Position numbers and translations under genes: made by a program. A DNA stretch of 62,260 nt from a virus. Taxonomy: Duplodnaviria; Caudoviricetes. Position 1 is the stretch's first letter; the number at the start of each line of letters is the position of its first letter. The notes beneath the pieces were generated by a model. The model was not told the DNA's origin. It made no database searches and saw nothing but the letters and a program-made list of their open reading frames with translations. Shown here one piece after another: positions 7,368 through 26,874 of this stretch. Location of the stretch: positions 1 through 62,260 of the IMG/VR virus record IMGVR_UViG_3300027780_000014; one strand, written 5' to 3'.

Positions 7368-7404
7368 CTCACTCCTTTCCATATGGGATGGCACAATCCG
7401 TGTC
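7368..7404 (+). promoter_or_regulatory. early motif copy 2, candidate early promoter
   Basis: CTCACTCCTTTCCATATGG then a GGCAC/GTGTC hairpin. Confidence 0.6.
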
Positions 7405-7857: not shown

Positions 7858-7876
7858 CTCACTCCTTTCCACTTGG
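7858..7876 (+). promoter_or_regulatory. early motif copy 3, candidate early promoter
   Basis: CTCACTCCTTTCCA is identical to 7368-7381 (14 bp), followed by CTTGG. Confidence 0.6.
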
Positions 7877-9162: not shown

Positions 9163-10026
9163 ATGAACGAACAAAAACTACTGGAGACTACGTTCTCTAG
9201 ACGAGGTCTTATGGCCTCGTTAAAAGATGATGTAGATATTGAAAGTATTACAGATTTAGTATTTTCAATAGAAACTTACTTAAACCAAGAGTATTCCTAT
9301 GATAGTAAGAATGCTCGTGTAAAAGCAATCAAAGTAGAATCTATTGACATCGCTTATCAGTTAGCGGCGTCAGTAATTAAATGTAACGGTGAAATTACTC
9401 CTATACAGAGTATTTGCACGTCTATGGCACCGTTGCTTCACACTAAACTAATTGAGGGTGTACGTACAGCTGCTGAAATCTTAGCAGTATGTGAAGGTAA
9501 ATTGTATGACTTGCTAGCTCATGATTATGAAAGTAATCCTACTGGTACTCTAGCTCTTGAGCCAAAGCTTAAGCCTAGTTTAAGTGTCTTGTCGAAAATT
9601 GATGAGTTTATGTACATACCACCAATGGTGTTACCTCCTAAACCTTGGAAGTTTAACCAGGGGGGTGGGCATTATACTCAACAAGAGTCCTGCATCTTAG
9701 GGCAGCATAACCATCATAAAGAAAAGCAAAGCTTAGACTGTTTAAATATCTTGCAGTCTATTAAATGGGAGCTCGATCCTGAAATCCTACAACTTAGGGA
9801 GAAACCTAATAAAACTTTAGATACCCCAGAAAAATCTATGCAGTTTGATCTTATGAAAACTACTAGTTCTAGAGTATATAAAGAATATACAGATATTCCA
9901 TTTTACTTCATGTGGAAATTTGATAAACGGGGGAGAATGTACTCTTCAGGTTATCACATCAATTTCCAGTCCACTGACTATAAGAAAGCTTTATTAAGCT
10001 TTGTAAAACAAGAGGTTATAATATAA
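9163..10026 (+). CDS. RNA polymerase II subunit 1 (N4 gp15-like)
   Basis: PPMVLPPKPW and FYFMWKFDKRGRMYSSGYHIN (DxRGR motif of T7-like RNAPs). Confidence 0.93.
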   Translation: MNEQKLLETTFSRRGLMASLKDDVDIESITDLVFSIETYLNQEYSYDSKNARVKAIKVESIDIAYQLAASVIKCNGEITPIQSICTSMAPLLHTKLIEGVRTAAEILAVCEGKLYDLLAHDYESNPTGTLALEPKLKPSLSVLSKIDEFMYIPPMVLPPKPWKFNQGGGHYTQQESCILGQHNHHKEKQSLDCLNILQSIKWELDPEILQLREKPNKTLDTPEKSMQFDLMKTTSSRVYKEYTDIPFYFMWKFDKRGRMYSSGYHINFQSTDYKKALLSFVKQEVII

Positions 10027-11009
10027 TGCAAAAATTCACTGGATTAGAGTATATAAAGATTGCAGCTGCTAATGAGTTTGGTAAAGACAAACTCTCTTGG
10101 CAAGATAGATTGTATTGGTTTGATTACAACGTTAGTAATCTTAACAGTATGACTCCTGCAGCTTCTAACCCGTTTTTATTTACTAAAGCTATTAATGCAT
10201 ACAATGATGCAATAGCTGGTAAACCAACGGGTTACATAATGGCCTTAGATGCTACTGCATCAGGGCTACAAATTATGGCCTGTTTATCAGGCTGCCTTAA
10301 AACTGCAGCTGCTGTCAATTTGATTGATACAGGTGACAGGGAAGATGTTTACACAGAAGTGGCTACTGGAATGAATCTTATTTTAGATCCAATTGATGCT
10401 GTTGTACGGGCTGATGTAAAAAAGCCTGTAATGACCCATTTCTATAATAAATCACGACAAGGCAGTCTAAGAGGTGAGCGAGAAAATGCTTTTCATGAAG
10501 TATTAAACTCTTTGTTTTCTGGTGCAGAAGACGTAATGAATATAATCAATGAGTGTTGGGACAACTCAGCTTTGTATCACAAATGGGTAACGCCAGATGG
10601 CCATGTATCTAAAGTCAAAGTGACTGAAGCAATGGATACACGCATTGAGGTTGATGAGCTAGATCATACAACCTTTACTTACCGATATACGAGTAACCAG
10701 CCTAGTACTAGACATACATCGCTATGTCCTAACTATATTCATAGTCTAGACGCCTGGGTAGCTCGTATGATGGTAAGAATGGCGCATAACCAGGGATTTC
10801 AATTAGCTCATATTCATGACTCATTTTGGGCATCACCTAACCATATGAATAAGGTGCGTGATAACTACCGAGTAATATTAGCCAAGTTAGCTGACTCAGA
10901 TGCGCTTAATAAGTTTATGCTAGATGTTACGGGTGATAATGTGTTATTAATAAAAGACTCACCTGATCTAAGTAAACATATATTAAACTCAGAATATGCA
11001 CTATCGTAG
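10026..11009 (+). CDS. RNA polymerase II subunit 2 (N4 gp16-like)
   Basis: Motif A LDATASGLQ, motif B R...KKPVMT..Y, PNYIHSLDA and motif C IHDSF. Confidence 0.95.
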   Translation: MQKFTGLEYIKIAAANEFGKDKLSWQDRLYWFDYNVSNLNSMTPAASNPFLFTKAINAYNDAIAGKPTGYIMALDATASGLQIMACLSGCLKTAAAVNLIDTGDREDVYTEVATGMNLILDPIDAVVRADVKKPVMTHFYNKSRQGSLRGERENAFHEVLNSLFSGAEDVMNIINECWDNSALYHKWVTPDGHVSKVKVTEAMDTRIEVDELDHTTFTYRYTSNQPSTRHTSLCPNYIHSLDAWVARMMVRMAHNQGFQLAHIHDSFWASPNHMNKVRDNYRVILAKLADSDALNKFMLDVTGDNVLLIKDSPDLSKHILNSEYALS

Positions 11010-11020
11010 ATCAAAAATAT

Positions 11021-11039
11021 AAGGGTGCTCCGCACCCTT
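11021..11039 (+). promoter_or_regulatory. GTGC-TCC-GCAC hairpin copy 1
   Basis: AAGGGTGC-TCC-GCACCCTT perfect 8-bp stem; the bottom-strand loop C-GGA-G matches N4 vRNAP promoter hairpins. Confidence 0.7.
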
Positions 11040-11085
11040 TTTTAAACTCTAATGTTTTTAATAGCATTTATCCATTTTAAACTCT

Positions 11086-11112
11086 AGTACCCCTTAATTG
11101 GGGTATTTTTTT
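11086..11112 (+). terminator. intrinsic terminator
   Basis: AGTACCCC-TTAATT-GGGGTATT followed by a T run. Confidence 0.8.
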
Positions 11113-11133
11113 AACTCATTATGAGGTGAAACT

Positions 11134-11688
11134 ATGGCCAATATATATCCAGGTAAGAAGTGTCGCAAGAAGGTTGCTGATATGACTGAAGAGGAACATA
11201 AGCAACATCGTGTGTATGCCAATGCAGCTACTAGAGCTCATGCGGCACGTCGTTTACCGAAACGCCTGTCTATTTATCCAGGTAAGAGGAGCCACAAACT
11301 GGTTGCAGACATGACTAAAAGTGAGCTTAAACAACATAGGATATATTGCAACTCGATCTATAATAAAATGAGTTTAGCGGATCCAGCTATAAAAGTTAAA
11401 GCTGCGAAATATGCGAAAGAGTGGCGATTAAAAAACCCTGAAAAAGCTAAGGCCCAGAAATCGAAGTGTTTAGCCAAAAGGCTAAAAGACCCTATTAGGT
11501 ATGAAACTTACCTAGCTAAGGGCAGAGAAGTGGCCAGTATATATATTGAGAACGTGTCTGATTACTACGTTAGAAGTATTCTCTGTAGACAGACTGGCAC
11601 TCCAGCTTATGAAATACCTACTGACGTTGTTGAACAACGTAGAATTAAAATTGTACTTGGAAGATTAATAAAATTCGAAAATCAATAA
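11134..11688 (+). CDS. basic protein with duplicated N-terminal motif
   Basis: Two copies of IYPGK.....VADMT..E.KQHR.Y.N; GAGGTG SD. Confidence 0.8.
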   Translation: MANIYPGKKCRKKVADMTEEEHKQHRVYANAATRAHAARRLPKRLSIYPGKRSHKLVADMTKSELKQHRIYCNSIYNKMSLADPAIKVKAAKYAKEWRLKNPEKAKAQKSKCLAKRLKDPIRYETYLAKGREVASIYIENVSDYYVRSILCRQTGTPAYEIPTDVVEQRRIKIVLGRLIKFENQ

Positions 11689-11697
11689 GGAAATATT

Positions 11698-12237
11698 ATG
11701 AAAAACTTAAACGTAAGTCAGTTAGTAACAAGTATCAAAAAACTTAGCCGTACATCTACAGGTCAGAAGTACATGTTTGCCAAGTTGTTGAACATGGCGG
11801 CTAACACCATTGATTGGGAAGTCACTCAGTATGTGACATTCGATGCAATGATTAAGGCTGAGATCCCTAATCTTAATGCAGAGGTGTATAACCTTATCTA
11901 TGGGTACACATGTATGCAGAAGTTTAACTGGCCAGAGAAAGAGCAGAAGTACTGTTTAGAGCGTCTTGGATGGACTAAGTTTGTAGCTGCTATCAATAAG
12001 GAGACCGTTAAGCTAGGACATGTGGCATTTGTTAAGAAGTATAAAAAGATACCCATGAGCAAGTTAGTTGATACAGGCACTCAGGCTAACACTGGTGAGA
12101 GATCCTACGCCTTTAGCTTACCTGACAAATTAGCTAACAAACTTGATGGTATACTAAGTCAACATGGCATAACGGTTATAAATGGACGTAAACATGGTCT
12201 TCGTGACTCTGTTATTTCTTTAATAAGTACATTGTAA
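11698..12237 (+). CDS. hypothetical protein
   Basis: 179 aa, AAGGA SD. Confidence 0.8.
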   Translation: MKNLNVSQLVTSIKKLSRTSTGQKYMFAKLLNMAANTIDWEVTQYVTFDAMIKAEIPNLNAEVYNLIYGYTCMQKFNWPEKEQKYCLERLGWTKFVAAINKETVKLGHVAFVKKYKKIPMSKLVDTGTQANTGERSYAFSLPDKLANKLDGILSQHGITVINGRKHGLRDSVISLISTL

Positions 12238-12247
12238 AGAGGAAATT

Positions 12248-12583
12248 ATGTTAACAATTTTAAGTAAAGGGCTTTTAACTTTTCCATTATTAGTACTAAT
12301 AGTGGCTATTTTTCATTTAGCTAACGGGGGTAGTATAAACCCTGAATTAACATTTGTATTTATGTGTGCTTTCTTTGCAATTATTACTAAATTACTAACA
12401 GTAGTATTTGGTTTGTTTGAAAGAGTAGCTAATGATTTATTAGAATTAGCATCAGACATAGATGAAAAAGATGATGACGAAATATTCGCATGTTTACATG
12501 ACGAAGAAGACATTAAAGGATTTCTCCAAGACCTAGAAAGTGAGATAATAAGGAGTATCGAAGCTAGAAAGGATCGTGAATGA
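12248..12583 (+). CDS. two-TM membrane protein with acidic tail
   Basis: Two hydrophobic segments followed by a D/E-rich C-terminus. Confidence 0.75.
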   Translation: MLTILSKGLLTFPLLVLIVAIFHLANGGSINPELTFVFMCAFFAIITKLLTVVFGLFERVANDLLELASDIDEKDDDEIFACLHDEEDIKGFLQDLESEIIRSIEARKDRE

Positions 12584-12807
12584 AAATACCTAATGATTTA
12601 CCGACACCTATTGGTGAGGACACTAGACCAAAAGATCGTATTAAACGAGCATTATCTAGTGCTTGTGTAGAAGAAGAGTGGGATACCACTAAACGAGAGT
12701 GGACTCCAACAGAACCTGATAATAAACATCTTATTTTAGGTGAATCTGCTTGGAATAATAAATACGTCAGTGAAGTTAATTACCGGGGTATTAAAAATAA
12801 TAAGTAA
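12580..12807 (+). CDS. hypothetical protein
   Basis: ATGA overlap, AAGGA SD. Confidence 0.65.
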   Translation: MKIPNDLPTPIGEDTRPKDRIKRALSSACVEEEWDTTKREWTPTEPDNKHLILGESAWNNKYVSEVNYRGIKNNK

Positions 12808-12817
12808 GAGGTAATAG

Positions 12818-13231
12818 ATGGAATCAAAAAATCTTGGATTTAAACCTAAAATACCTGAATCGTTTAGTACTGCTGTACGTAACCAAGAATCTTGGATTGA
12901 TTCAGATCTAGGTCTGTTGATGGAGCTACGTGCACTCTCTGTTTCATTTGTAGACTGCGGTAAAATTCTTAAAAGAAGGCCAGCTTCCTGCACTATGGCT
13001 GTCTCAACTAATAAACTCTACGAAGCTATTAGTAAAAAACGTAAACAACTAATAAATAACACAATTTACCTTAACCAAGGTGTGGAACGCTTCGAGGTTA
13101 TAGACCATACATGGGCAGGTACAGGTAGAATGGTAAACATGACGCATTATGACGTTAGTGTCGAGTTGTCGTATCAAGATGATGGTAAAACATTAAAAGT
13201 ATTCCTAAAGGATAAAGACAATGAAAGTTAA
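12818..13231 (+). CDS. HTH-like protein fused to a small phage domain
   Basis: N-terminal W....L..L......GKILKR..SC (Myb/GcrA-like); C-terminal RFEVID...GR...VELSYQDDGKTLKVF. Confidence 0.6.
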   Translation: MESKNLGFKPKIPESFSTAVRNQESWIDSDLGLLMELRALSVSFVDCGKILKRRPASCTMAVSTNKLYEAISKKRKQLINNTIYLNQGVERFEVIDHTWAGTGRMVNMTHYDVSVELSYQDDGKTLKVFLKDKDNES

Positions 13232-13610
13232 CATAGGGGAATACCCTGATCCAGAAATCGAGGTAAGAATAGACAAAGAAGACACATGGAGCATGGACTA
13301 TACCCTAGCACATGTAATCCTACCGATGCTCAAACAGTTAAAAGAATCTAAACATGGTAGCCCCTTTACCGATGATGAAGATGTGCCAGAGGAACTGCGT
13401 AGCACAGTAGATGGCCCTAAAATAAATAAGTGGGACACAGATAGCAACTTCCATGCCCGTTGGAACTGGATAATGGATGAAATGATCTGGGCCTTTGAAC
13501 AGAAGTGTGAAGACGATTGGATGTTCAAAGACAATTTGAAAGAACATCAAAAACGAATGACTAAAGCATTTAAAATGTTCGGCAGGTACTATGAGAATCT
13601 GTGGGATTAA
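13221..13610 (+). CDS. conserved phage hypothetical protein
   Basis: DTWSMDYTLAHVILPMLKQLK...HG.P...RWNWIMDEMIWAFE...FGRYYENLWD pattern, common in phages. Confidence 0.8.
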   Translation: MKVNIGEYPDPEIEVRIDKEDTWSMDYTLAHVILPMLKQLKESKHGSPFTDDEDVPEELRSTVDGPKINKWDTDSNFHARWNWIMDEMIWAFEQKCEDDWMFKDNLKEHQKRMTKAFKMFGRYYENLWD

Positions 13611-13623
13611 CAAAAACAGTTAA

Positions 13624-13662
13624 TTGTTTCTTATATTTTACTTTGTATAATTTAAGAAACAA
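13624..13662 (+). promoter_or_regulatory. sigma70-like promoter bracketed by a 10-bp inverted repeat
   Basis: TTGTTT-N16-TATAAT; arms TTGTTTCTTA (13624-13633) and TAAGAAACAA (13653-13662). Confidence 0.55.
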
Positions 13663-13692
13663 AAAAGACATAAATCACAAAAAGGCTAATCT

Positions 13693-13995
13693 ATGAATAG
13701 AACTTGGAGTTATGACCAAACTAAAATATTAAAGGAAAAGTACGGAGTACTTCCAGTAGTAGCTTTAGCTTTGGTTTTAAGTAAAACTGAAACAGCTGTT
13801 TTAAAAAAAGCTAGTAAAATGGGTTTAAAGTCTAATCTTCCCCATAAAGTCAAACTACCTTTAAGCACTATTAAAAATCTTAGAGAAAGAGGCTTTGGTA
13901 CAAGACAAATAGCTCGTTTAATAGGCTGTTCGCATGGTGGTGTAGCTTACGCTGAAAAACATCATTATTTTAAACGAAGAGATAACGAATCATGA
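13693..13995 (+). CDS. double helix-turn-helix DNA-binding protein
   Basis: W(S/T)....IL...Y......LA..L.KT..AV..KA.KMGL (Myb-like) plus RGFGTRQIARLIGCS HTH. Confidence 0.7.
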   Translation: MNRTWSYDQTKILKEKYGVLPVVALALVLSKTETAVLKKASKMGLKSNLPHKVKLPLSTIKNLRERGFGTRQIARLIGCSHGGVAYAEKHHYFKRRDNES

Positions 13996-14282
13996 GATTA
14001 AGAAAAACAATTGATGAACCTAAAACTGATCCAGCTTATACAGATTCAGCAATAGAATCTCAAGTAGGTGGTAATCATTATCAAGTCCTTGGAGTGCAAC
14101 CACTTGAAGCTACTTATGCTAACTTTGGTTACATAGGCTTACGTGCTTCTGTTCACACTAAAGTATGTAAATACTTAACTCGTGATAAAGGCACTCATAA
14201 AGAAGACATTACAAAAGCAATACATGTATTGCAAATGCAATTGGAATTCCTGGAAAGGAGTGAAAATGAATGTCTTCTTTAA
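13992..14282 (+). CDS. DUF3310 / SaV-like protein
   Basis: QVGGNHY...QPLE...KYLTR.KG...EDI.KA.H motif. Confidence 0.8.
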   Translation: MRLRKTIDEPKTDPAYTDSAIESQVGGNHYQVLGVQPLEATYANFGYIGLRASVHTKVCKYLTRDKGTHKEDITKAIHVLQMQLEFLERSENECLL

Positions 14283-14428
14283 AAGACAAGTTAATTAAAG
14301 CACGTAAAGTTGAAGACATTCGTCATGAAATGACTACTTATGAAAACGCTATTAAAGGTGGAAGTAAGTACACTGAATACTATCAACGTAAAGTGAAAGA
14401 ATTACTTGTAAAATTAAACGCAATTTAA
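14270..14428 (+). CDS. small hypothetical protein (52 aa)
   Basis: AAGGAG SD; MSSLKDKLIKARKVEDIRHE...; below the track cutoff. Confidence 0.6.
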   Translation: MSSLKDKLIKARKVEDIRHEMTTYENAIKGGSKYTEYYQRKVKELLVKLNAI

Positions 14429-14445
14429 ATTTATTAAAACTAAAC

Positions 14446-14472
14446 AAGAGACACCCAAGGGTGTCTTTTTTT
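14446..14472 (+). terminator. intrinsic terminator
   Basis: AGACACC-CAAG-GGTGTCT followed by a T run. Confidence 0.85.
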
Positions 14473-14474
14473 AT

Positions 14475-14489
14475 ACGTGCTCCGCACGT
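14475..14489 (+). promoter_or_regulatory. GTGC-TCC-GCAC hairpin copy 2
   Basis: ACGTGC-TCC-GCACGT then TTTA, directly after a terminator and before the AAA gene. Confidence 0.75.
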
Positions 14490-14521
14490 TTTAACCATTT
14501 AAATATTATTTAGGAAATACT

Positions 14522-15535
14522 ATGGAACTTTCAACTAAAGACATTCCAGAAGCGATTGTCAACGTATTATATGCAGGCAAAGTACCTTTCTTGAAGGGAA
14601 GCCCTGGCATCGGTAAATCTGACATTATTAAGCAGGTTGCTGAAGAACTTAATCTAAAAGTAATTGACTTTCGTTTAAGTCAAGCAGACCCAACTGACTT
14701 ACAGGGTTTTCCTGGAGTTGAAAATGGCCGTGCTACATTCTTACCAGCTGCTTTGTTTCCTATTGAAGGAGACACAGTACCTGAAGGATACAATGGCTGG
14801 TTGCTATTTTTAGACGAAATGAACAGTGCTCCATTAAGTGTGCAAGCTGCAGCTTATAAGCTCTGTCTTGATAGACAAGTAGGTCAAAATAACCTACATA
14901 AAAATGTAGCTGTTATAGGTGCAGGCAACCTAGCTACAGATAAAGCTATCACTCAACGTATAGGTACTGCTATGCAGAGTCGGCTTATACATCTAAACAT
15001 GGGTGTAGATCCAGATCATTGGCTCAAGTGGGCTAACGTAGCTGGTATCGACCATCGTATTACATCATTCATTGAGTACAGGAAAGAATTGTTATTTAAA
15101 TTCAATCCATCACATGCTGATGATACGTTTGCTTGTCCACGTACATGGGCATTCTTATCCGACATAATTAAGGGTAAGGAAAAGCTTAGCCATATTGATG
15201 TAGTTACAGCTGCAGGTACTGTAGGTGAAGGCTGCGCATTAGAGTTCAAAGGCTTTAGTGAGATCTTTCAAAGTCTACCTAAAATCAAGGACATCATTAG
15301 TAAACCTAGTACTGTCAAAATACCTAATGAGCCAAGTGTGCATTACGCATTAGCTGGTCTCATTGCGTACGAAGTAACGACAGAAAACATTGATAACCTA
15401 TCCAAATTCGTAGAGCGCTTACCGGCTGATTTTCAAGTAGTCACTTGGAAGTCTGCAGTACGTCGTAACGCTGAAATAATGGAAGCACCATACATTGATG
15501 CATGGGTTACTAAAAACGCTCAGGAGATGCTATGA
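14522..15535 (+). CDS. MoxR-like AAA+ ATPase (N4 gp24-like)
   Basis: GSPGIGKS, LLFLDE, AGN, SRL and CPRTW motifs. Confidence 0.92.
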   Translation: MELSTKDIPEAIVNVLYAGKVPFLKGSPGIGKSDIIKQVAEELNLKVIDFRLSQADPTDLQGFPGVENGRATFLPAALFPIEGDTVPEGYNGWLLFLDEMNSAPLSVQAAAYKLCLDRQVGQNNLHKNVAVIGAGNLATDKAITQRIGTAMQSRLIHLNMGVDPDHWLKWANVAGIDHRITSFIEYRKELLFKFNPSHADDTFACPRTWAFLSDIIKGKEKLSHIDVVTAAGTVGEGCALEFKGFSEIFQSLPKIKDIISKPSTVKIPNEPSVHYALAGLIAYEVTTENIDNLSKFVERLPADFQVVTWKSAVRRNAEIMEAPYIDAWVTKNAQEML

Positions 15536-16467
15536 GACATTATCTAACAGCTTTAGATGCCACAGTAGATCATAACGTATTTAAAAACGTTTCTGAATCA
15601 GATTATGCTTTGATGCATCTTGACGATACACCAAAAAAAGTCAAAGACATGTGTGTTATATCTAACCATGTGTCAGCTAGATTTGATAAAGAAGATTTAA
15701 GAAGGTTTTATTATAGTAATAATTACGCTGGAGCTTCTTATAAATTATTTCAAAATAATGATTTTGAATTACAGGTTAATCATAGTGTAAATGATTTACT
15801 TCACGTTGAAGCTCTTGATATTTTAATAGCTCCTTCAAAACGTTTTAAACATTGGCTTAGAAATATTACTGCTCATAGTAATAATAGTAATGATGTTATT
15901 AAAGTACCTAAAAATAATATAGATAACGAATCTTTTATGATTGTTGATTTATCAAATCAGCACAACGGACGTGTAAGATTTGATATATCTCAAAAAGGTA
16001 CTCAACTATTTAAACAAAATAAATTTAGTTACAAATATTGCCATCAAACTGATTCAGTACGTAATTTTTACATGCCTCCTAATAAAGAAGCACGTAAAGA
16101 ATATCGTGAAAAAATAGACGCTTTAATAAAAAAAGTAACTTTATTAAGTTATCTAAAAGATGACGGAAGCGATGTTAAAATGCCTGAAGGATTAAACAAC
16201 ATTGCACGAGAAAAGTGGCAAAAGCATAATGACGAGCCTGAGTGGGCCCATAAACAAGCTTATGAATACATTCAAAACAATTACGATGGGCAACTTGCTC
16301 TTAAATCTTTTATAGAGCGTAAAAATTTGCGTCATAGCTATAGTCTTGGACGTGATGTCATTAGAGAAATGATTAAACATTACAGTCAATATAGACATGA
16401 AATTGAAGTAGATTATTTTACTTGTGATGTTCATGAGTACTGGCGTTCAGAACTTAAATTAAAATAA
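15532..16467 (+). CDS. hypothetical protein between AAA and vWA genes
   Basis: 311 aa, AGGAG SD, ATGA overlap; no motif recognised. Confidence 0.8.
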   Translation: MRHYLTALDATVDHNVFKNVSESDYALMHLDDTPKKVKDMCVISNHVSARFDKEDLRRFYYSNNYAGASYKLFQNNDFELQVNHSVNDLLHVEALDILIAPSKRFKHWLRNITAHSNNSNDVIKVPKNNIDNESFMIVDLSNQHNGRVRFDISQKGTQLFKQNKFSYKYCHQTDSVRNFYMPPNKEARKEYREKIDALIKKVTLLSYLKDDGSDVKMPEGLNNIAREKWQKHNDEPEWAHKQAYEYIQNNYDGQLALKSFIERKNLRHSYSLGRDVIREMIKHYSQYRHEIEVDYFTCDVHEYWRSELKLK

Positions 16468-16477
16468 GGGGAAAATT

Positions 16478-17635
16478 GTGGAATATCCAGCAGTTGAAAT
16501 TACTCCAGCTCTACAAAAAGAGTTAGATAAAACAAAAATTGGCTTAATGATGCAAGGAGGAACTTTCCTCATAGCTGTTGGTTTAATGATGCAGCATGTA
16601 TTTACAGAAATTGTAAGTACTGCTGCTACAGATGGTAAAAGAATCTATTTTAATCCAGCATTTTTTACCGGCTTATCTAAGCAAGAACGCATTGGTGTTT
16701 TAGCTCATGAAATTATGCACATTGCTTTAATGCACCCACTTCGTAAAGGAGAGCGTGATCATAATTTATACAACCAAGCAGGTGATTACGTTATAAACGA
16801 TATATTGCGAAATTCTGGTTATGTTTTACCTGAGCCACACTTATATGATGCAAAGTATCATGGGTGGAGCACTGAAGAAGTTTACAACGACCTTCTTCAA
16901 CATCAAGGTAAGCAAGATAAACCTAACATTCTTGATGGAGATATTGATTTCTCTGAAGATGCAGACACTGAAACTAAAGGCGATATTGCTACTAGTATTC
17001 AAGACACTGTAATGAAAGCCAGAGCACAGGCTAAAATGGAAGGTGGTGAAGAAGCGGGTAAAATACCTGGTGAAGTAGATCGTTTAATTAATGATTTAAT
17101 CAATCCAGTATTAGACTGGAGTCAATTGCTAGCAAGGTTTATGGATAGCAATACTAAAAATGATCATACTTGGAAACGTCCTAACAGACGTTACTTCCCT
17201 ACTCATTACATGCCTACTATGTACTCAGAAACTATAGCGCATCTTACAGTTGCTATAGATACATCTGGATCTGTAACTGATCCTATGATGTCTGAAATAC
17301 TTACAGAAGTTAAAAGTATCTATGATACGTATCAACCAAGTAATATGACTATACTTGATTGTGATGAAATCATTCATAACATACACGAAGTAGACGACAG
17401 CACAGATATTATGAAGCTTAAGTTTACTGGAGGAGGCGGAACATCATTTTATCCAGTATTAGATTACTGCAAAGAAAATGCTACAAATGTTTTGCTTTAT
17501 TTTACAGATCTTTATGCAGAATCTATTACTGCAGAAGATGGATACGAATTTGAAACTATGTGGATTTGTTATTCAGAACAAGAAGCACCAGAATACGGGG
17601 AGACCATATATTATGAGTCAAAACACGCATGGTAA
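16478..17635 (+). CDS. metallopeptidase-vWA protein (DUF2201-like, N4 gp25-like)
   Basis: TAATDG, HEIMH, A.DY.IN; MIDAS DTSGS...GGGGT...FTD. Confidence 0.92.
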   Translation: MEYPAVEITPALQKELDKTKIGLMMQGGTFLIAVGLMMQHVFTEIVSTAATDGKRIYFNPAFFTGLSKQERIGVLAHEIMHIALMHPLRKGERDHNLYNQAGDYVINDILRNSGYVLPEPHLYDAKYHGWSTEEVYNDLLQHQGKQDKPNILDGDIDFSEDADTETKGDIATSIQDTVMKARAQAKMEGGEEAGKIPGEVDRLINDLINPVLDWSQLLARFMDSNTKNDHTWKRPNRRYFPTHYMPTMYSETIAHLTVAIDTSGSVTDPMMSEILTEVKSIYDTYQPSNMTILDCDEIIHNIHEVDDSTDIMKLKFTGGGGTSFYPVLDYCKENATNVLLYFTDLYAESITAEDGYEFETMWICYSEQEAPEYGETIYYESKHAW

Positions 17636-17858
17636 ATTGCTTGCTACAGTTAGTCTAGGGTATGGAACTAAGTTCCTATTACCTGTAGACGATGCAGTAG
17701 CAATAATGAAATCTTTAAAAACTGCAGAAATAATGACAGGTTATGGAGATACTTTAGCTATTGAAGGATTTGATTTTGATAGTAAAATATCTATGGAATT
17801 AGTTAGCGAAGTTAACGTTAATAAAATAAGAATTAAACAAACCATTTCAGGAGATTGA
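17613..17858 (+). CDS. hypothetical protein
   Basis: GGGGAG SD supports the ATG at 17613 (MSQNTHGK) rather than the track start at 17478. Confidence 0.7.
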   Translation: MSQNTHGKLLATVSLGYGTKFLLPVDDAVAIMKSLKTAEIMTGYGDTLAIEGFDFDSKISMELVSEVNVNKIRIKQTISGD

Positions 17859-17859
17859 T

Positions 17860-18360
17860 ATGGATAAATTATCTATGACAACTCTTCTGAATTCAATACA
17901 AGCAAAGTTTGTTTTACCTGCTATTAAAAACAGAAAACAATTTCTGCTTAATTATCTTAAAAGTATGACTGAAGAAAATTCAAAATATTTAACGTTTATA
18001 CTTCAAGAAAGTAATGGCAATCAATCTTTTATTAATACTTCTGATGATGCATGTTATTTAACTGATGAAGTTAAAACTATTTGTTTATTTGATTTACCTG
18101 ATTTTAATCAAGTAGAAATAAAAAAACATTTGCAACTTATAGATAATTTAAAAGATTCTATAAAAGAAATTCAAGTGTATTTATGTTATTTAAATAACAA
18201 GAGTGACAATGTTGTAGATATTGCGTACGCATTACCTGCTCACATTAATCAACTTGTTCCAATGGTAACACCTGAAACTTATTATATTAAAGATTTACGT
18301 GATCCAAAAACGTACGCTTTATTAAATGAGCTACAAATAAAACTATTATTATTATCATAA
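17860..18360 (+). CDS. hypothetical protein
   Basis: AGGAG SD, 166 aa. Confidence 0.75.
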   Translation: MDKLSMTTLLNSIQAKFVLPAIKNRKQFLLNYLKSMTEENSKYLTFILQESNGNQSFINTSDDACYLTDEVKTICLFDLPDFNQVEIKKHLQLIDNLKDSIKEIQVYLCYLNNKSDNVVDIAYALPAHINQLVPMVTPETYYIKDLRDPKTYALLNELQIKLLLLS

Positions 18361-18373
18361 GTGCTCCGCACTT
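18359..18373 (+). promoter_or_regulatory. GTGC-TCC-GCAC hairpin copy 3
   Basis: AAGTGC-TCC-GCACTT then TTT, intergenic. Confidence 0.75.
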
Positions 18374-18394
18374 TTTCATGAAAAGGGGAACATC

Positions 18395-18856
18395 ATGGGT
18401 TGCGACATTCATTTATTCAAAGAATACCGTTCACCTGATATACATAACAACAAATGGATAAGTTACGACCATTGGTATAGTGAAGGTACAGAGATGGGTA
18501 GAGCTTTTGACGATTCTGCACCATCTAGAAACTATGATGCTTTTGGCATGTTAGCTGAAGGTGTGCGTGGTGAATATCCATACAGTGTAGAATGCAAAGG
18601 TCTTCCTGATGATGTAACTCATCTTGTGCGTACTGAGCACAAAAGTTGGGGAGTAGATGCCCATTCTGTTACTTATTTTACAGAAGTTGAGTTAAATGCT
18701 TTAATCATTAGATTATCTATAATGACTGCAGATGATACAGTAAACAGACAGAAGGCTTATTTACACCATATGTTACAGTATATGAATCAAATACCTTTTG
18801 AATTTCACATAGAAGAAAGTACAGAAAAACGAATTGTATTTTGGTTTGATAATTAA
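18395..18856 (+). CDS. conserved phage protein (MGCDIH family)
   Basis: MGCDIH...RNY..FG.LA.GVR...KGLPDD...HS....EL...RIVFWFDN. Confidence 0.85.
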   Translation: MGCDIHLFKEYRSPDIHNNKWISYDHWYSEGTEMGRAFDDSAPSRNYDAFGMLAEGVRGEYPYSVECKGLPDDVTHLVRTEHKSWGVDAHSVTYFTEVELNALIIRLSIMTADDTVNRQKAYLHHMLQYMNQIPFEFHIEESTEKRIVFWFDN

Positions 18857-18865
18857 GGAATTAAC

Positions 18866-19069
18866 ATGGGTAAACGATTTGAAAATCCTGAAGGAATTGT
18901 CATGATGATGACTCTTAAAGGAATGCACCAAGTACATTCACATAATGTAAACGGTGTGCACATTTTTAAAACTACTGATAAACAACGTGCATTAAATCAC
19001 TTTAAAGATATGGTAATGGAAATGGAGGTTTTACATGATAGCGGAAATGTTAATGTGTCTAGCTCTTAA
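18866..19069 (+). CDS. hypothetical protein
   Basis: AAGGA SD. Confidence 0.6.
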   Translation: MGKRFENPEGIVMMMTLKGMHQVHSHNVNGVHIFKTTDKQRALNHFKDMVMEMEVLHDSGNVNVSSS

Positions 19070-19451
19070 TGGGTACCACGAAGCTAGAGGAGAACCTACA
19101 GCAGGTGAGATAGCTGTAAACCATGTTGTCATGAACCGTGTTGCTGATCACCGCTATAAAAACAATGTGTGTGATGTAGTTAAATCTGGAAAATATAGAA
19201 ATGAGCAACCTGTAAGACATGCTTGCCATTTCAGCTGGTGGTGTGACGGAAAGTCTGACGAACCTTACGATATAAAAGCTTGGTTATATTCTAACCAACT
19301 TGCTAGTTTAATAATTTCAGGCATGCATCCCGATATAACTGATGGAGCGACTCATTACCATAAAATAGGTTACTATCCAAAATGGATTAACGATATTGGT
19401 ATGATTCGTGTTGGTCTTATAGGTGATCACATCTTTTATAGATGGGAATAG
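19035..19451 (+). CDS. SleB/Hydrolase_2 cell wall hydrolase
   Basis: CLALNGYHEARGE...AV.HVVMNRV...FSW.CDG...TDGATHYH...IGDHIFY. Confidence 0.92.
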   Translation: MIAEMLMCLALNGYHEARGEPTAGEIAVNHVVMNRVADHRYKNNVCDVVKSGKYRNEQPVRHACHFSWWCDGKSDEPYDIKAWLYSNQLASLIISGMHPDITDGATHYHKIGYYPKWINDIGMIRVGLIGDHIFYRWE

Positions 19452-19488
19452 CAATATATAATATGTGCTCCAAAATTAGGAGCAATAA

Positions 19489-19599
19489 GTGAAAATAACC
19501 GAAGACGACCTTAGTATAGAGTCAGCTACGTGTTTTGTAGTGGGAGTAATACTATTAATAATACTAAAACTAATGGATTGGATAAATCTACCGCTATAG
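19489..19599 (+). CDS. small membrane protein (36 aa)
   Basis: AGGAG SD plus GTG; MKITEDDLSIESATCFVVGVILLIILKLMDWINLPL. Confidence 0.5.
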   Translation: MKITEDDLSIESATCFVVGVILLIILKLMDWINLPL

Positions 19600-19721
19600 A
19601 AATTAAGCATTTTATGGAATATATGATGCAACATTACACTTTAGTTGAAATCCAAGAAATATTAAGCAGTGATAGCTTATATAATTTTTATACGCTTATA
19701 TCTATTAAATCATACGCATGA
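19530..19721 (+). CDS. hypothetical protein (true start possibly TTG 19578)
   Basis: ORF track; fills the gap before the polymerase. Confidence 0.4.
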   Translation: MFCSGSNTINNTKTNGLDKSTAIEIKHFMEYMMQHYTLVEIQEILSSDSLYNFYTLISIKSYA

Positions 19722-19800
19722 CCGACCGCAATTGATCGCGGTTTTCCTGTAGGACTTGTCCACCTATGGTCACAACGGACTCCTAATTTCTGAGGTATCT

Positions 19801-21294
19801 ATGAAACATCTGTATACCGATCCGGATAAATTTCCGGAAGCTGCTCTATTAATAAAAGGAGTAGCATTTAAGTATTTTGATATAAAAAAACATTACGCAG
19901 ATCCATTAAACATCTGCTTAAAAGCCCTGCCATTAGAATACAATTCTCTAAATAAAGCCCCTGCTAAAATGATTAAAGAAGTTTTGCCGGCTATTCTAGC
20001 TAATCTAGATGCTGAAGGCATAACCACAGTAATTATTGCAGACACTGCTTATTTTAAAGCTGCTACACGTCAATCTAAGGCTGAGCCACATTATGGTTAC
20101 AAAATGCCTTGTACAGTAGCCGGGTACGAACACATGTGTGTGTTTTTGACTGCTAACTACCAAGGATTGTTTTATAACCCACGTATACAAGAAAAAATTG
20201 ACCTCAGCTTGTCAGCAGTTGCAACTCATTTAGATGGCAGTTACCAAAAGCCAGGTCAAAATATTATACACTCATCAACGTATGTTACAGATTTAAGTGA
20301 AATAGAAAAAACATTAAAAATGTTAAAAAAACATACTTTTCTTACTTGTGACGTAGAAACTTATGGCTTAAGCATTGATAAATCTCGCATAGCTACTATT
20401 GCATTTGCATGGAACCAGCATGAAGGTGTGTGTATAAATATTAACCATCATCTTACTCGTACATTTGAAGACGATGCTGCAATAAAAAAGATGCTTAGAG
20501 ATTACTTTATAACCTCTAATGCTACACATATATATCACAATGCTACATTTGACATACGCTGTATTATTTATGATTTTTTTATGAAAGATAGTACTGATTT
20601 TGTTGGAATGATAGATGCTTTAGATGTCATGTATAAAAAAGTGCACGACACTAAGTTAATTACGTATTTAGCTACTAACAATACTGCAGAAAATAAATTG
20701 TCACTAAAAGACAATTCAATTGAGTTTGCTGGTAACTACGCCCAGGAAGATATTAAAGATATTAATTTGATACGCACTGTAATACTTATGGAATACAATT
20801 TAACTGACTGTTTAAGTACTTGCTACTTGTTCAATAAATATTACGACAAAATGGTTGCTGATGATCAGCTAGACATTTACAACAATATTTTTATACGTTC
20901 ATTAAAAAATATTACTCAAATGGAGCTTACGGGTATGCCTATGGATATGGGTGCAATTGTAAAAGTGTCTGACGATCTTAAACAAATTATGAAAGAACGC
21001 ACAGATAGCTTAATGAATGAGGAGCTAGTCAAAGATTACTTGTGGTTAGAGCAAAAGAAAGCATTTATTATAAAAAATACTCTTCTTAAGAAGAATTTTA
21101 AACCTTTAGATGATTTTAAATCTGTTTTAAACACTAGTAGTCCTAAACAAATTGGAAACCTTTTGTATGAATTCCTGGGGTTACCTGTACTAGACACAAC
21201 TGATACAGGTAAGCCAGCAACTGGTAAAAAAGCCATAAAAAAACTGTACGATTCTTTAATAACTAAATTTAAAATAAATGAGGATGAATTATGA
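19801..21294 (+). CDS. polA: family A DNA polymerase, N-terminal part (N-domain, 3'-5' exonuclease, part of thumb)
   Basis: GAGGT SD before ATG 19801; Exo I DVETYG, Exo II HNATFD, Exo III YNLTD, MELTGM and SPKQI..LLYEFLGLP...T.TGKPATG. Confidence 0.9.
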   Translation: MKHLYTDPDKFPEAALLIKGVAFKYFDIKKHYADPLNICLKALPLEYNSLNKAPAKMIKEVLPAILANLDAEGITTVIIADTAYFKAATRQSKAEPHYGYKMPCTVAGYEHMCVFLTANYQGLFYNPRIQEKIDLSLSAVATHLDGSYQKPGQNIIHSSTYVTDLSEIEKTLKMLKKHTFLTCDVETYGLSIDKSRIATIAFAWNQHEGVCININHHLTRTFEDDAAIKKMLRDYFITSNATHIYHNATFDIRCIIYDFFMKDSTDFVGMIDALDVMYKKVHDTKLITYLATNNTAENKLSLKDNSIEFAGNYAQEDIKDINLIRTVILMEYNLTDCLSTCYLFNKYYDKMVADDQLDIYNNIFIRSLKNITQMELTGMPMDMGAIVKVSDDLKQIMKERTDSLMNEELVKDYLWLEQKKAFIIKNTLLKKNFKPLDDFKSVLNTSSPKQIGNLLYEFLGLPVLDTTDTGKPATGKKAIKKLYDSLITKFKINEDEL

Positions 21295-21701
21295 GTCAAT
21301 TCAAACTTTCTGATTTAGGTGAAAAATTTAAAACACAAATTCTAGAAGTTTCTCAAGATGTATTTGATATACATTGGGAACTTGTAGATTACAATTTAAA
21401 AACTAATGCTATATCAGGGGATCTAGTTGTTCTTATAGAATATACAGATGAAGAAGATGATTTTAATAAACTTAAAACTACTCTTCTATTATCTAATATG
21501 GATGTTAACGTAGGTAGTATAACTGCAGGTTATAAAACAGCCACACTTTGGCCCGTAACTGAAGTTAATCCATCTATTGCACGTTATATTATTCGTACTT
21601 TTATTTCTTTAGATGATTTCCCAGAGATTGCTTTAGGTAATTATATTAAAGACGCACAGGAAACTCTTACTTATGAGTGGACAAAAAAAGATCAAGACTA
21701 A
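21291..21701 (+). CDS. acidic hypothetical protein inserted between the polymerase halves
   Basis: GAGGA SD, ATGA overlap; no HNH, GIY-YIG or LAGLIDADG motif seen. Confidence 0.75.
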   Translation: MSQFKLSDLGEKFKTQILEVSQDVFDIHWELVDYNLKTNAISGDLVVLIEYTDEEDDFNKLKTTLLLSNMDVNVGSITAGYKTATLWPVTEVNPSIARYIIRTFISLDDFPEIALGNYIKDAQETLTYEWTKKDQD

Positions 21702-22788
21702 AGAAGAGGCTATCAAAGTAGCTAGAATTCTTAAGTACTTAATAGAAATAAATGAAGTCAGTAAATTATTGACTGCGTTTATTCCTGCTTTTATGTTTAA
21801 AACGATACTCAAAATGGGTAAATGGTTTTTACATGGTAATTTTCACATGGGAGGTACTAAATCAGGTCGTTTAAGCTCATCTAAAGTTAACTTACAGCAA
21901 TTACCTTCTACTGGTAGTAAGTATGCTAAAGCTATTAAAAGTTGTTTTAAAGCTCCCGATGGCTGGGTAATTGTAGGTGCCGACTTTTTTAGTCTGGAAG
22001 ACAGAATATCTGCTCTTACTACTAAAGATCCAAATAAACTAAAAGTTTACACTGATGGTTATGACGGTCACTGCATGAGGGCATTCGCTTACTTTAGTAA
22101 GCAGATGCCCGATATTGTAGACACTGTTAGTTCTATTAATTCTATTGAAACAAAGTATGAAGCGCTTAGACAAAGATCTAAAGGGCCAACATTTGCACTT
22201 ACTTATCAGGGCACTTCACATACTTTAATAAACACTTTGGGTATTCCTAAAGCAGAAGCACTAGAGATTGAAAAAAATTATCATGAGCTTTACAAAGTTT
22301 CAGATGAATGGGTTCAACAAAAGCTAATTCAGGCTTCCAAAGACGGCTATGTAACAGGCGCATTTGGTCTTCGACTAAGAACTCCACTGTTAGCTAAAAC
22401 CATCTTAAACACGCGTCATACGCCGTTTGAAGCTCAAGCAGAGGGACGAACTGCAGGTAATGCTCTAGGTCAGTCTTACGGATTGTTAAATAACAGAGCA
22501 GCTAACGAATTTATGGACAAAGTGCATGCATCTGAATACAGATATAACATTTTACCCATAGCTCACATACATGATGCGCAATACTACATGGTAAAAGCTG
22601 AACCAAAGCTAATTTGTTGGTTAAATACTAACCTAGTAGATAGCATGTCTTGGCAAGATTTACCCGAACTTGAACATGATTGTGTTAAACTAGGTGCTTC
22701 ATTAGAAATATATTATCCTGATATGAGTAATAAGATTACAATATCTAATGATTCTACTGAAGCAGAAATAATACAAGCAGTGCTTTAA
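21673..22788 (+). CDS. polA: family A DNA polymerase, C-terminal catalytic part
   Basis: T.SGRLSSS..NLQQLP, motif A ADFFSLEDRI, motif B RQRSKGPTFALTYQG, motif C IHDA. Confidence 0.93.
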   Translation: MSGQKKIKTKEEAIKVARILKYLIEINEVSKLLTAFIPAFMFKTILKMGKWFLHGNFHMGGTKSGRLSSSKVNLQQLPSTGSKYAKAIKSCFKAPDGWVIVGADFFSLEDRISALTTKDPNKLKVYTDGYDGHCMRAFAYFSKQMPDIVDTVSSINSIETKYEALRQRSKGPTFALTYQGTSHTLINTLGIPKAEALEIEKNYHELYKVSDEWVQQKLIQASKDGYVTGAFGLRLRTPLLAKTILNTRHTPFEAQAEGRTAGNALGQSYGLLNNRAANEFMDKVHASEYRYNILPIAHIHDAQYYMVKAEPKLICWLNTNLVDSMSWQDLPELEHDCVKLGASLEIYYPDMSNKITISNDSTEAEIIQAVL

Positions 22789-22799
22789 AAGTGCTACAG

Positions 22800-22945
22800 T
22801 TAGTGTGCTCTCGTTGATGAGCATACATGCAGGGTTTTCCCCTCTCTGAAGTTAAAAAATCAATAAGCCAGGGTTAGTGTTTTTCCCCATAGTGCTGTAG
22901 TCCCCGCAGCAGGTGACAGAGGGGACACTTTACTGTCCCTACTAT
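22800..22945 (+). ncRNA. candidate structured small RNA
   Basis: About 200-bp intergenic gap with several GC-rich stems and two TTTTCCCC motifs; no family recognised. Confidence 0.3.
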
Positions 22946-22960
22946 AAAACAAAATGTAAA

Positions 22961-22973
22961 TGTGCTCCGCACA
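22961..22973 (+). promoter_or_regulatory. GTGC-TCC-GCAC hairpin copy 4
   Basis: TGTGC-TCC-GCACA before the nuclease/primase operon. Confidence 0.7.
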
Positions 22974-22994: not shown

Positions 22995-23969
22995 ATGTTC
23001 ACAAATACATCAAATTTGCCTATTAGTGTCGCTGTATGGTTAGCACACGATGACTACGATCACTCTAGTGACCCATATCATGTAAGCGCCACTAGCCTTC
23101 TTAAACCTATTAAAAGCCTTGTATTAAGCAACCGTGTAGCTACTAACTCTGATACAGATGTAGCAGATTTAATAGCTAGTAGAATGGGTACTGCAGTACA
23201 TACTGCAATAGAGAATGCCTGGTTAAATTCTTCTCGAACAGAAACATTACACAAATTAAATTATTCACAAAAACTTGTAAATAACATAGTTATTAACCCA
23301 TCACCTAGTCAGATTACAGAAGACAGTGTGCCTATTTACATGGAGCTACGTGGCTCTACAAAAGTAGGTAAATACACTGTTTCTGGTAAGTTTGACTTTG
23401 TATCTGGCGGAGTTCTTGAAGATTTTAAAACTACTGGTACGTATGGTTACATAAACCAGTCTAATGCTGAAAAGTACATTCAACAAGGAAGTATCTACAG
23501 ATGGCTACATCCTGAAATAATTACTGAAGACTATATGTACATTCAATACATATTTACTGACTGGAGTGCTGCTAAAGCAAGACAAGATAAAAACTATCCA
23601 TCCAGTAGAATTGTGCCTCAACGGTACGTCCTTAAATCTGTACAAGATACAGAAGCATTTGTAGTATCACGCATCAATATGATTGACATGTATCAAGATG
23701 CTGCTCAATCAGAAATTCCTGACTGTACTCCTGAAGAGTTATGGGAAAGAGCTCCTGTATTTAAATATTATAAAAACCCTGAAAGTAGAGCTAGATCTAC
23801 TAAAAATTTTACAACATACCACGAAGCGCATGAACGCATGTTACAAGATGGTTCTGTAGGCGTAGTTGTAGAAATTAAGGGAGAAGTTAAATTTTGTAGT
23901 TACTGTCCTGCTGTTAGCATATGTAAACAAGCTAAAGGCTACATAGCTGCAGGTAGATTAGTAGTTTAA
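22995..23969 (+). CDS. PD-(D/E)XK Cas4-like exonuclease (N4 gp42-like)
   Basis: GTAVH, GKFD...EDFK, Q.SIY and C-terminal C...CSYC.....C. Confidence 0.85.
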   Translation: MFTNTSNLPISVAVWLAHDDYDHSSDPYHVSATSLLKPIKSLVLSNRVATNSDTDVADLIASRMGTAVHTAIENAWLNSSRTETLHKLNYSQKLVNNIVINPSPSQITEDSVPIYMELRGSTKVGKYTVSGKFDFVSGGVLEDFKTTGTYGYINQSNAEKYIQQGSIYRWLHPEIITEDYMYIQYIFTDWSAAKARQDKNYPSSRIVPQRYVLKSVQDTEAFVVSRINMIDMYQDAAQSEIPDCTPEELWERAPVFKYYKNPESRARSTKNFTTYHEAHERMLQDGSVGVVVEIKGEVKFCSYCPAVSICKQAKGYIAAGRLVV

Positions 23970-23980
23970 AAGGAAACAAT

Positions 23981-26131: not shown

Positions 26132-26135
26132 TTAC

Positions 26136-26858
26136 ATGAAATTAAACGACAACCTGGTACTTATATCAGGTAAGAGTGCCACGGGTAAATCAGCTAGTCT
26201 GATGAACATTCAAGATCCTGATGGGGTCATTTATTTAAATTGTGAAAATAATAAAAAATTACCTTTTCGGAGTAACTTTAAAGAGTTTGGCATTACAGAC
26301 CCATTACAGGTCTATGAAGCTTTTGAAGAAGCCGAAAAAATGGACGATTACCATACCATTGTTGTAGATAGTTTAACCTACATGATGGATATGTTTGAAT
26401 CATATTACGTGCTTAACTCATCTAATACGATGAAAGCATGGGGCGATTATGCCCAATTCTTCAAGAAGTTAATGAGTAAATATGTTGCTGAATCCTCTAA
26501 GAATGTGATCTTTATTGCTCACACCTCTGACATCATGAATGATGCCGAGATGGCGATGGAAACACTTGTTAAAGTGAAAGGTTCTCTCATGAACCAAGGC
26601 ATTGAGTCCTATTTCTCTACTATAGTTAGTACAAAGAAGGTAAATCTCAAGCATTTGAAAAAGTATGAGAGCGACTTACTGGAAATTACTCCAGATGAAG
26701 AAGAACTAGGCTTTAAATACGTCTTCCAAACTCGTATCACCAAAGATACAGTTAACGAGCGTATGCGAGCTCCGCTCAGTATGTGGTCTACTAACGAGAC
26801 ATTTACTGATAACAATATACAGTTGGTTATTAACCGACTTCACGAATACTATATCTAA
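26136..26858 (+). CDS. AAA_24/Sak4-like ATPase (N4 gp44-like)
   Basis: GKSATGKS, IVVDSLT, FIAH motifs; position between primase and SSB. Confidence 0.87.
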   Translation: MKLNDNLVLISGKSATGKSASLMNIQDPDGVIYLNCENNKKLPFRSNFKEFGITDPLQVYEAFEEAEKMDDYHTIVVDSLTYMMDMFESYYVLNSSNTMKAWGDYAQFFKKLMSKYVAESSKNVIFIAHTSDIMNDAEMAMETLVKVKGSLMNQGIESYFSTIVSTKKVNLKHLKKYESDLLEITPDEEELGFKYVFQTRITKDTVNERMRAPLSMWSTNETFTDNNIQLVINRLHEYYI

Positions 26859-26874
26859 TACAGGTACTAAAATT

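Follow-up and report, generated by a model that had tools for sequence, protein, structure and literature searches.

N4-like phages are the textbook case of viruses transcribed by three polymerases in succession. In the present study, we analyzed the complete viral record IMGVR_UViG_3300027780_000014 (62,260 bp; hereafter the window), the genome of an N4-like (Schitoviridae) marine phage of about 36% G+C, and found four intergenic DNA hairpins with an identical GC-TCC-GC core, each standing ahead of a middle operon. The reading that we favor on balance is that they are middle promoters, recognized as GC-GGA-GC hairpins on the template strand and probably used by the phage RNA polymerase II (RNAPII); that they are promoters of some phage polymerase appears quite likely. 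Hairpin promoters of this kind are known as early promoters in N4 and as both early and middle promoters in LUZ7, and the layout seen here is known from LUZ7, not from N4.

The four elements share the 11-mer GTGCTCCGCAC, which has exactly four matches in the window (at 11025, 14477, 18361, and 22962), all on the + strand and all intergenic, as the initial annotation of this DNA had reported. The mean number of matches in 100 dinucleotide-preserving shuffles was 0.00 (0/100 with any match), and the intergenic share of the rightward gene block is 1569 of 21,363 nt (7.3%). The hairpins are as follows, with positions such as +14 counted from the center of the loop, and their stem lengths and coordinates are those that had been given before.
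11021-11039, + strand: site 1, AAGGGTGC-TCC-GCACCCTT, stem of 8 bp, followed by T6
14475-14489, + strand: site 2, ACGTGC-TCC-GCACGT, stem of 6 bp, followed by TTTT and A
18359-18373, + strand: site 3, AAGTGC-TCC-GCACTT, stem of 6 bp, followed by TTTCATG, G at +14 (18380)
22961-22973, + strand: site 4, TGTGC-TCC-GCACA, stem of 5 bp, followed by ATTCTATG, G at +14 (22981), without a T run

Site 3 shares 2 nt with the TAA of the upstream open reading frame (ORF). From the center of the loop to the next start codon there are 104, 40, 29, and 28 nt at sites 1 to 4, the downstream start codons being those of the gene at 11134, the ATPase gene (14522), the gene at 18395, and the exonuclease gene (22995). 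Among the 118 perfect triloop hairpins of the window with stems of at least 5 bp, GC-TCC-GC is the sole core found four times. When up to two mismatches were allowed, GTGCTCCGCAC gave 10 matches against 5.22 expected, a number reached by 3 of the 100 shuffles; the six extra matches are scattered and near chance, and therefore there is no broader degenerate family of this motif. As DNA, the template-strand hairpins fold with nearest-neighbor energies of -3.6 to -8.2 kcal/mol.

On the template (-) strand the core reads GTGC-GGA-GCAC, with a GGA loop closed by a C:G pair. According to the accessible sections of an N4 review (PMC4496689), the promoter of the N4 virion RNA polymerase (vRNAP) is a template-strand hairpin with a stem of 5-7 bp and a 3-nt 5'-G-N-A-3' loop closed by C:G, in which the enzyme contacts -8G, -9C, -10G, -11G (a purine), and -12A. 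The four window hairpins, with their stems of 8, 6, 6, and 5 bp, have this structure, and all of the contact bases are present on the template strand of the window phage. We scanned the whole N4 record NC_008720 for C-T(T/C)C-G hairpins and found three with a GC-rich stem, at 96 (GTTGC TTC GCAAC), 565 (AAGAAGC TCC GCTTCTT), and 4554 (AAGCTGC TCC GCAGCTT), each followed by T's and by GG at +11/+12. They are consistent with the description of three vRNAP promoters in the leftmost 10% of N4 and all lie in the first 4.6 kb of the record, in agreement with the earlier statement that N4 carries such hairpins only near its left end. The cores of N4 P2 (565) and P3 (4554) are letter-identical to those of the window hairpins and are likewise followed by a T run, so that the initial annotation was correct in recognizing the N4 promoter loop on the template strand; the outer stem of N4 is also variable provided that it is paired. 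Additionally, the template core GCGGAGC fits the d(GCGNAGC) mini-hairpin, a form known from DNA-chemistry work rather than from phage promoters and described as an extraordinarily stable compact hairpin in the available part of the source (PMC13037366).

This likeness to proven promoters raises the alternative that the hairpins are N4-type vRNAP promoters fired by the injected virion polymerase, alone or alongside RNAPII, so that vRNAP would transcribe the replication genes, and perhaps pull the DNA into the cell, over the first ~16 kb. The identity of the core to N4 P2 and P3, every vRNAP contact base included, is what such promoters would show, and the TTTT at +7 to +10 of sites 2 and 3 agrees with the four-base ruler by which N4 vRNAP initiates 11 nt from the loop center, at GG in P1-P3. 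The start itself does not follow this rule, for +11/+12 reads TT, AA, CA, and TA at sites 1 to 4 and never GG, which all three N4 promoters have. The proposal that copy 2 keeps the N4 spacing thus holds for its TTTT at +7 to +10 and the A at +11, where P2 and P3 have TTTT and then GG; for the GG start it fails at every site.

Placement bears on the same question. The genes concerned are listed below.
9163-10026, + strand: RNAPII small subunit gene, with a PHROG match (for the subunit pair, phrog_2166 at 7.6e-56 and phrog_2051 at 3.9e-104)
10026-11009, + strand: RNAPII large subunit gene; the RNAPII pair (9163-11009) marks the end of the early block
28560-39899, - strand: virion RNA polymerase gene, 3779 aa, matched by the N4 vRNAP chains at 1e-24

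In N4, three copies lie at the left end (at most 4.6 kb) upstream of the early genes, including those of RNAPII, whereas the four window hairpins head middle operons, all downstream of the RNAPII genes and none upstream of them; the middle placement unlike N4 that had been noticed before is therefore confirmed. Such promoters are restricted to the left end, in the sections of the review available, by hairpin extrusion coupled to injection and by the small number of injected vRNAP molecules (PMC4496689), which also speaks against vRNAP use in the middle region. We favor RNAPII over vRNAP because of the gene order, since the RNAPII genes need a pre-existing polymerase and yet have no such hairpin upstream, and because a repeat of another kind, CCTT(G/T)TTCCAyaTGG, lies ahead of the three leftmost early transcription units (6987-7001, 7374-7386, and 7864-7876, + strand). 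This repeat is kept upstream of the homologues of ORF 7420 in four relatives and is, judged from its sequence and position, a candidate early promoter that is not of the G-N-A hairpin type. It is also true that the early genes have no canonical long-stem G-N-A hairpin upstream, the only other GC-TNC-GC cores being two GCTTCGC at 6751-6778, which would fit a vRNAP that acts at the middle sites instead.

We further aligned 128 polymerase domains, after a library search that gave 453 relatives, in order to compare vRNAP specificity. The equivalents of the catalytic residues (D2067, K2153, and D2437) are invariant in 128/128, and the N4 promoter-contact residues fall in gappy columns (W129, gap in 123/128; R904, gap in 112/128), for which no conservation can be claimed. 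The window enzyme is very distant from that of N4; phmmer against PDB aligned its polymerase core weakly (13.9 bits). Given the missing GG and the gene order, we find use by vRNAP doubtful. If it were true, vRNAP promoters across the first ~16 kb would drive the replication genes directly in this marine clade, and RNAPII would serve another class of promoter, or both enzymes would share one class of hairpin.

The second line of evidence comes from relatives, which were fetched from viral and metagenome contigs via the ATPase gene and represent lineages of about 100, 88, 86, 85, and 79% ATPase identity. All recovered lineages have the hairpin at shared junctions, one past RNAPII and the others ahead of the ATPase, the homologue of 18395, and the exonuclease; in one relative that is 96% complete (G001) the hairpins number exactly four, one at each of these junctions, and another (G002) has three together with a variant site 1. 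The 23 close-clade sources gave 29 distinct 27-mers, of which 25 entered the covariation count; three imperfect copies internal to the primase gene and one site-2 variant differing outside the stem were left out. Stem cells are paired at 90% versus 77.5% in shuffles, with 0/500 shuffles as high; the fifth stem pair is seen as CG, AU, GC, and UA with 0/25 unpaired, and pairing falls to 22-60% in the control in which the partner is shifted by 1-3 columns. In contrast to these changing outer pairs, four inner stem positions (G9, C12, G16, and C19) and the TCC loop are invariant in 25/25, and TT at +8/+9 is unchanged in 25/25, also where the T's are not paired.

The single sites vary accordingly. 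Site 1, after the RNAPII gene, has stems of 6-8 bp in the relatives, and in the 79% lineage it reads AGGGCAC-TCC-GTGCCCT, the second pair having changed from G-C to A-T; site 3 stems include GAGTGC/GCACTC, AGAGTGC/GCACTCT, and AAGAGAGC/GCTCTCTT, and the stem of site 4 is 7 bp long in the 79% lineage. The outer pairs covary and the core is invariant, and therefore selection acts on structure and core together: the hairpins are real and strongly selected as structures with a fixed core, and the selection that had been proposed from pairing within the genome extends across the relatives. Furthermore, the C.A that site 2 of the 79% lineage carries on the + strand corresponds to T.G on the template strand, a stem change that points to a hairpin formed there.

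The hairpins also behave as exchangeable units. Two neighboring RNA structures have to be introduced here.
14449-14473, + strand: canonical intrinsic terminator, stem followed by T7, -13.4 kcal/mol, 0/200 shuffles folding as well
11086-11115, + strand: terminator-like hairpin, stem followed by T7, -12.1 kcal/mol, between site 1 and the first middle gene, with a stem that covaries between lineages

Site 2 starts 2 nt past the terminator 14449-14473, which closes the first middle operon and whose inverted repeat is listed on the - strand too. The upstream context of this site is swapped in three comparisons (L045, L047, and L049, representing two replaced upstream contexts), with 96-100% identity from -9 onward and random sequence outward from -10. 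At site 3 it is the downstream context that is swapped (L002 versus L053), identity being at least 87% to +14 and 20-30% from +15. The breakpoints at -10/-9 and +14/+15 therefore define the conserved unit as a module from -9 to +14, which at site 1, starting 12 nt past the stop codon of the RNAPII large subunit gene, corresponds to 11021-11044.

Since mosaic junctions adjoin the hairpins, and stable template-strand mini-hairpins recur at a spacing of 3.5-4.6 kb, the elements could be imagined to play another DNA role, as priming or origin signals on single-stranded DNA or as recombination hot spots that shuffle cassettes. We consider this highly unlikely: nothing ties the motif to the primase or recombinase of the phage, junctions beside promoters are expected anyway if promoters delimit exchangeable cassettes, and the accessible parts of the LUZ7 report connect such hairpins to transcription start sites (PMC9163698).

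The closest parallel to the promoter reading is indeed LUZ7. Long-read mapping of 5' ends (ONT-cappable-seq) gave nine early start sites, mostly at N4-like hairpins, including a tandem pair 33 nt apart upstream of Drc, and four middle start sites with G starts, each about 15 bp past a GC-rich hairpin similar to the early type (stem of 6 bp or more, loop of 3-4 nt), as far as the available text of that report goes (PMC9163698). Our scan of LUZ7 recovered TAC hairpins at 3669 and 3701, 32 nt apart and upstream of the Drc gene, which fits the mapped early pair, as well as four TCC hairpins (stems, 6-7 bp) that precede genes of the rightward block (8245, 9529, 35259, and 39361), each with G at +14. 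We infer these to be the four mapped middle promoters. Elsewhere on the + strand there are two further TCC hairpins (66585 with a stem of 6 bp and 72429 with a stem of 5 bp), which have C and T at +14. This partition, with TCC hairpins in the middle region and TAC hairpins at the early pair, is a further point against vRNAP as the user of the window sites.

Both phages thus carry four hairpins in the middle region, those of the window 28-104 nt ahead of middle genes, and LUZ7 hairpin 8245 stands directly after the RNAPII large subunit gene with a terminator following, the same order as at window site 1. The window stems compare with the LUZ7 minimum of 6 bp as 8, 6, and 6 bp at sites 1-3 and 5 bp at site 4, with a 3-nt loop throughout; the LUZ7 stems have other sequences and are more GC-rich, and the host and genus of LUZ7 are far from the window phage, whose RNAPII large subunit is at most 40% identical to that of any listed phage. 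Of 34 distinct contexts in the close clade, 17 have G at +14; three of the 34 are the imperfect primase-internal copies, all with A there, and sites 3 and 4 almost always carry the G. The initial annotation had implied that middle hairpins of this type were new; at the level of the family this novelty is largely lost, since hairpins similar to the early ones are already described upstream of four middle start sites in the accessible portion of the LUZ7 work (PMC9163698).

A scan of related Schitoviridae, which had been proposed earlier, shows that several other schitovirus lineages likewise have TCC-loop hairpins in their middle regions. We surveyed the rightward regions of 25 Schitoviridae loci for GC-rich triloop hairpins, read on the coding strand, and found a strong strand bias for T-N-C loops: TCC 37 versus GGA 2, TTC 29 versus GAA 7, and TAC 20 versus GTA 4, as well as TCT 12 versus AGA 2, other triloops being balanced between the strands. 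Distinct intergenic TCC hairpins lie downstream of the RNAPII genes in 19 cases and upstream in three, two of the latter being N4 P2 and P3. Judged from these sequences, middle-region hairpins look common in Schitoviridae, with N4 the exception. More speculatively, a T-N-C triloop hairpin with a start near +14 might be the general RNAPII promoter of most Schitoviridae, in which case the AT-rich middle promoters of N4 would be exceptional.

In eight enterobacterial-type N4-like loci (L007, L009, L012, L016, L018, L020, L064, and L072), intergenic hairpins of the form AA..CC-T(C/T/A)C-GG..TT occur downstream of RNAPII, followed by GCTTTGG and with GG at +14/+15, and the loop center differs at orthologous sites; we found no description of these middle-region hairpins in the literature searched. 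The idea that TCC marks middle and TTC or TAC early promoters was rejected as a general rule because these orthologous middle hairpins carry TCC, TTC, or TAC interchangeably.

Several observations weigh against RNAPII middle promoters in the window and have to be set beside the evidence above. In the available sections of both sources, RNAPII of N4 works from non-hairpin promoters (PMC4496689, PMC9163698), and therefore hairpin use by RNAPII is no rule of the family. That RNAPII uses the LUZ7 hairpins is in turn deduced from timing, and our assignment of the four LUZ7 TCC hairpins to the mapped middle promoters uses only their count, stem length, and G start. Window sites 1 and 2 have A and C, not G, at +14. 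In some relatives site 1 carries G.T on the + strand, hence C.A on the template, a polarity opposite to that of the change at site 2. Site 1 is moreover of terminator grade as RNA (-11.9 kcal/mol, T6), intrinsic terminators likewise consist of a hairpin and a T tract, and a transcript from site 1 would reach the terminator 11086-11115 after about 70 nt. Marine metatranscriptomes (six runs, two studies, 5-14% of sampled words) gave in four cases only short contigs (183-733 nt among those listed), in which starts, ends, and strand were unreadable and which bear on promoter activity in neither direction.

Part of these points would be explained if the hairpins acted at the RNA level, as intrinsic terminators or as processing or stabilizing stem-loops that end the early and the first three middle units. 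Each hairpin indeed comes after a gene end, T4-T6 follow sites 1-3 with TT at +8/+9 invariant, and both the stability of site 1 and the G.U pairing that its variants would form in the + strand transcript agree with such a role. The rest of the evidence goes the other way. Free energies as RNA are -11.9, -6.9, -5.3, and -4.7 kcal/mol for sites 1-4, with T6, T4, T5, and no T run, compared with -8.8 to -20.4 kcal/mol and T7-8 for four canonical terminators of the same phage, and sites 2-4 are weak as RNA terminators; site 4 is without a T run in every lineage, and a terminator-scanning tool called 0/4 of the hairpins on the + strand. An intrinsic terminator is defined by a stable GC-rich RNA stem that runs straight into about five or more U's; site 1 has both features, whereas site 3 combines T5 with a weak stem. 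Site 2 would be redundant 2 nt past a strong terminator, and it remains attached to the downstream operon where the upstream context has been swapped. No copy stands behind the last rightward gene (ending at 28402). Termination does not need an invariant loop and an invariant inner stem, the site-2 change of the 79% lineage would be a C.A mismatch in RNA, and the T-N-C strand bias is shared with the proven N4 promoters. For these reasons we regard a purely RNA-level role as unlikely. For site 1, which is terminator-grade and has some variants with G.T on the + strand, a dual role is plausible, with promoter function combined with termination of early transcripts in the RNA. Transcription initiated there would yield an RNA of about 70 nt or an attenuated leader. 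Two exact copies of TTTTAAACTCTA (at 11040 and 11075, + strand) lie ahead of the terminator 11086-11115. The local repeat TTTYAAASWCTA was considered as a second promoter class and rejected, having 11 matches versus 8.27 expected genome-wide and hence no enrichment.

Returning to the middle promoter reading, in which the hairpins would serve operons of replication and accessory genes, we propose the following course of events. The hairpin would form on the template (-) strand as GTGC-GGA-GCAC, a mini-hairpin of the GCGNAGC type with a G-N-A triloop, after exposure through supercoiling or by a cofactor that binds single-stranded DNA. A phage RNA polymerase of the single-subunit type would then read the loop and the four conserved stem pairs and would start about 11-14 nt past the center of the loop, after the short T tract, the best candidate being the G at +14. 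The enzyme would most likely be the early-encoded, two-subunit RNAPII, as was proposed for the hairpin middle promoters of LUZ7. In this manner the 21-kb rightward block would be divided into four units, 11134-14282, 14522-18360, 18395-22788, and 22995-28402.

Further hairpins of related form occur inside genes. A single copy in reverse orientation, AAGTAC-GGA-GTACTT at 13738-13752 (TCC on the - strand), lies within ORF 13693-13995 and recurs in L046, one of the relatives; this copy may be due to chance or may give rise to an antisense transcript. Imperfect C-TCC-G hairpins are found on the + strand within the primase gene (25064-25080), where pairing on the template strand includes G.T and altered forms recur in relatives, and within the Sak4 gene (26767-26777), about 100 nt ahead of the SSB gene, the latter copy being present in neither G001 nor G002.

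The genome around the four sites is otherwise of N4 type. The rightward gene block spans about 7040-28402, beginning with small early ORFs and then both RNAPII subunit genes, and continues with an ATPase, an N4 gp25-like gene, a DNA polymerase in two ORFs, an exonuclease, a primase, Sak4, SSB, and RusA, the same gene order as in N4. The two DNA polymerase ORFs (19756-21294 and 21673-22788, + strand) have between them an overlapping ORF of 136 aa without a known family, and a 206-nt spacer between the DNA polymerase and site 4 is richer in G+C, contains several inverted repeats, and has no Rfam match; the Rfam scan of the whole window gave 0 families. No named phage gave a DNA match to the window, the best identity of the RNAPII large subunit being 40%, and a scan of viral contigs queried with that subunit recovered zero relatives. 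Five contigs of two lineages (L002, L003, L004, L011, and L055) start about 2.3 kb upstream of the ATPase, which might suggest a physical genome end. We rejected it because the 85% and 79% lineages have a letter-identical start block, which L005 and L054 carry internally; on this sequence evidence, the shared start is an assembly break at a common recombinant block.

At the left of the early region, one further element was found.
6751-6778, + strand: left-end element between the divergent late and early genes, with a 7-bp stem and a 14-nt loop

Its stem covaries between lineages (AGACAGC/GCTGTCT versus GTAAGGC/GCCTTAC), and the two overlapping GCTTCGC of its loop equal the N4 P1 core; it could be a variant vRNAP promoter, an origin, or a packaging signal. 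To its right, the second copy of the early repeat (7374-7386) is followed by a 5-bp hairpin (7390-7404) and then by ORF 7420-7782 (+ strand), a monocistronic early ORF with terminators on both sides. This ORF is fast-evolving, being 72% and 37% identical in relatives that show 99-100% identity in the ATPase, and by its position it is a candidate cofactor of RNAPII. When it was compared with LUZ7 Drc and N4 gp1 and gp2 in a set of 34 proteins, no recognizable homology to Drc or gp2 emerged (4.7 bits to Drc); it has no PDB, Pfam, or PHROG match and no usable ESM Atlas match, and its AF2 model is poor (pLDDT 52.5).

To our knowledge, the middle promoters of N4-like phages are essentially unmapped outside N4 and LUZ7, and the window phage offers a clean example from its clade, with four identical hairpins, four operons, and covarying stems kept across lineages. 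The core shared by these middle sites and the N4 vRNAP promoters sharpens the question of whether one DNA hairpin is read by both vRNAP and RNAPII, and it also raises the question of whether early or middle timing is set by start spacing, by a cofactor, or by the time at which the DNA enters the cell. The practical value is modest and lies in the annotation of operons in uncultured schitoviruses and in candidate orthogonal promoters.

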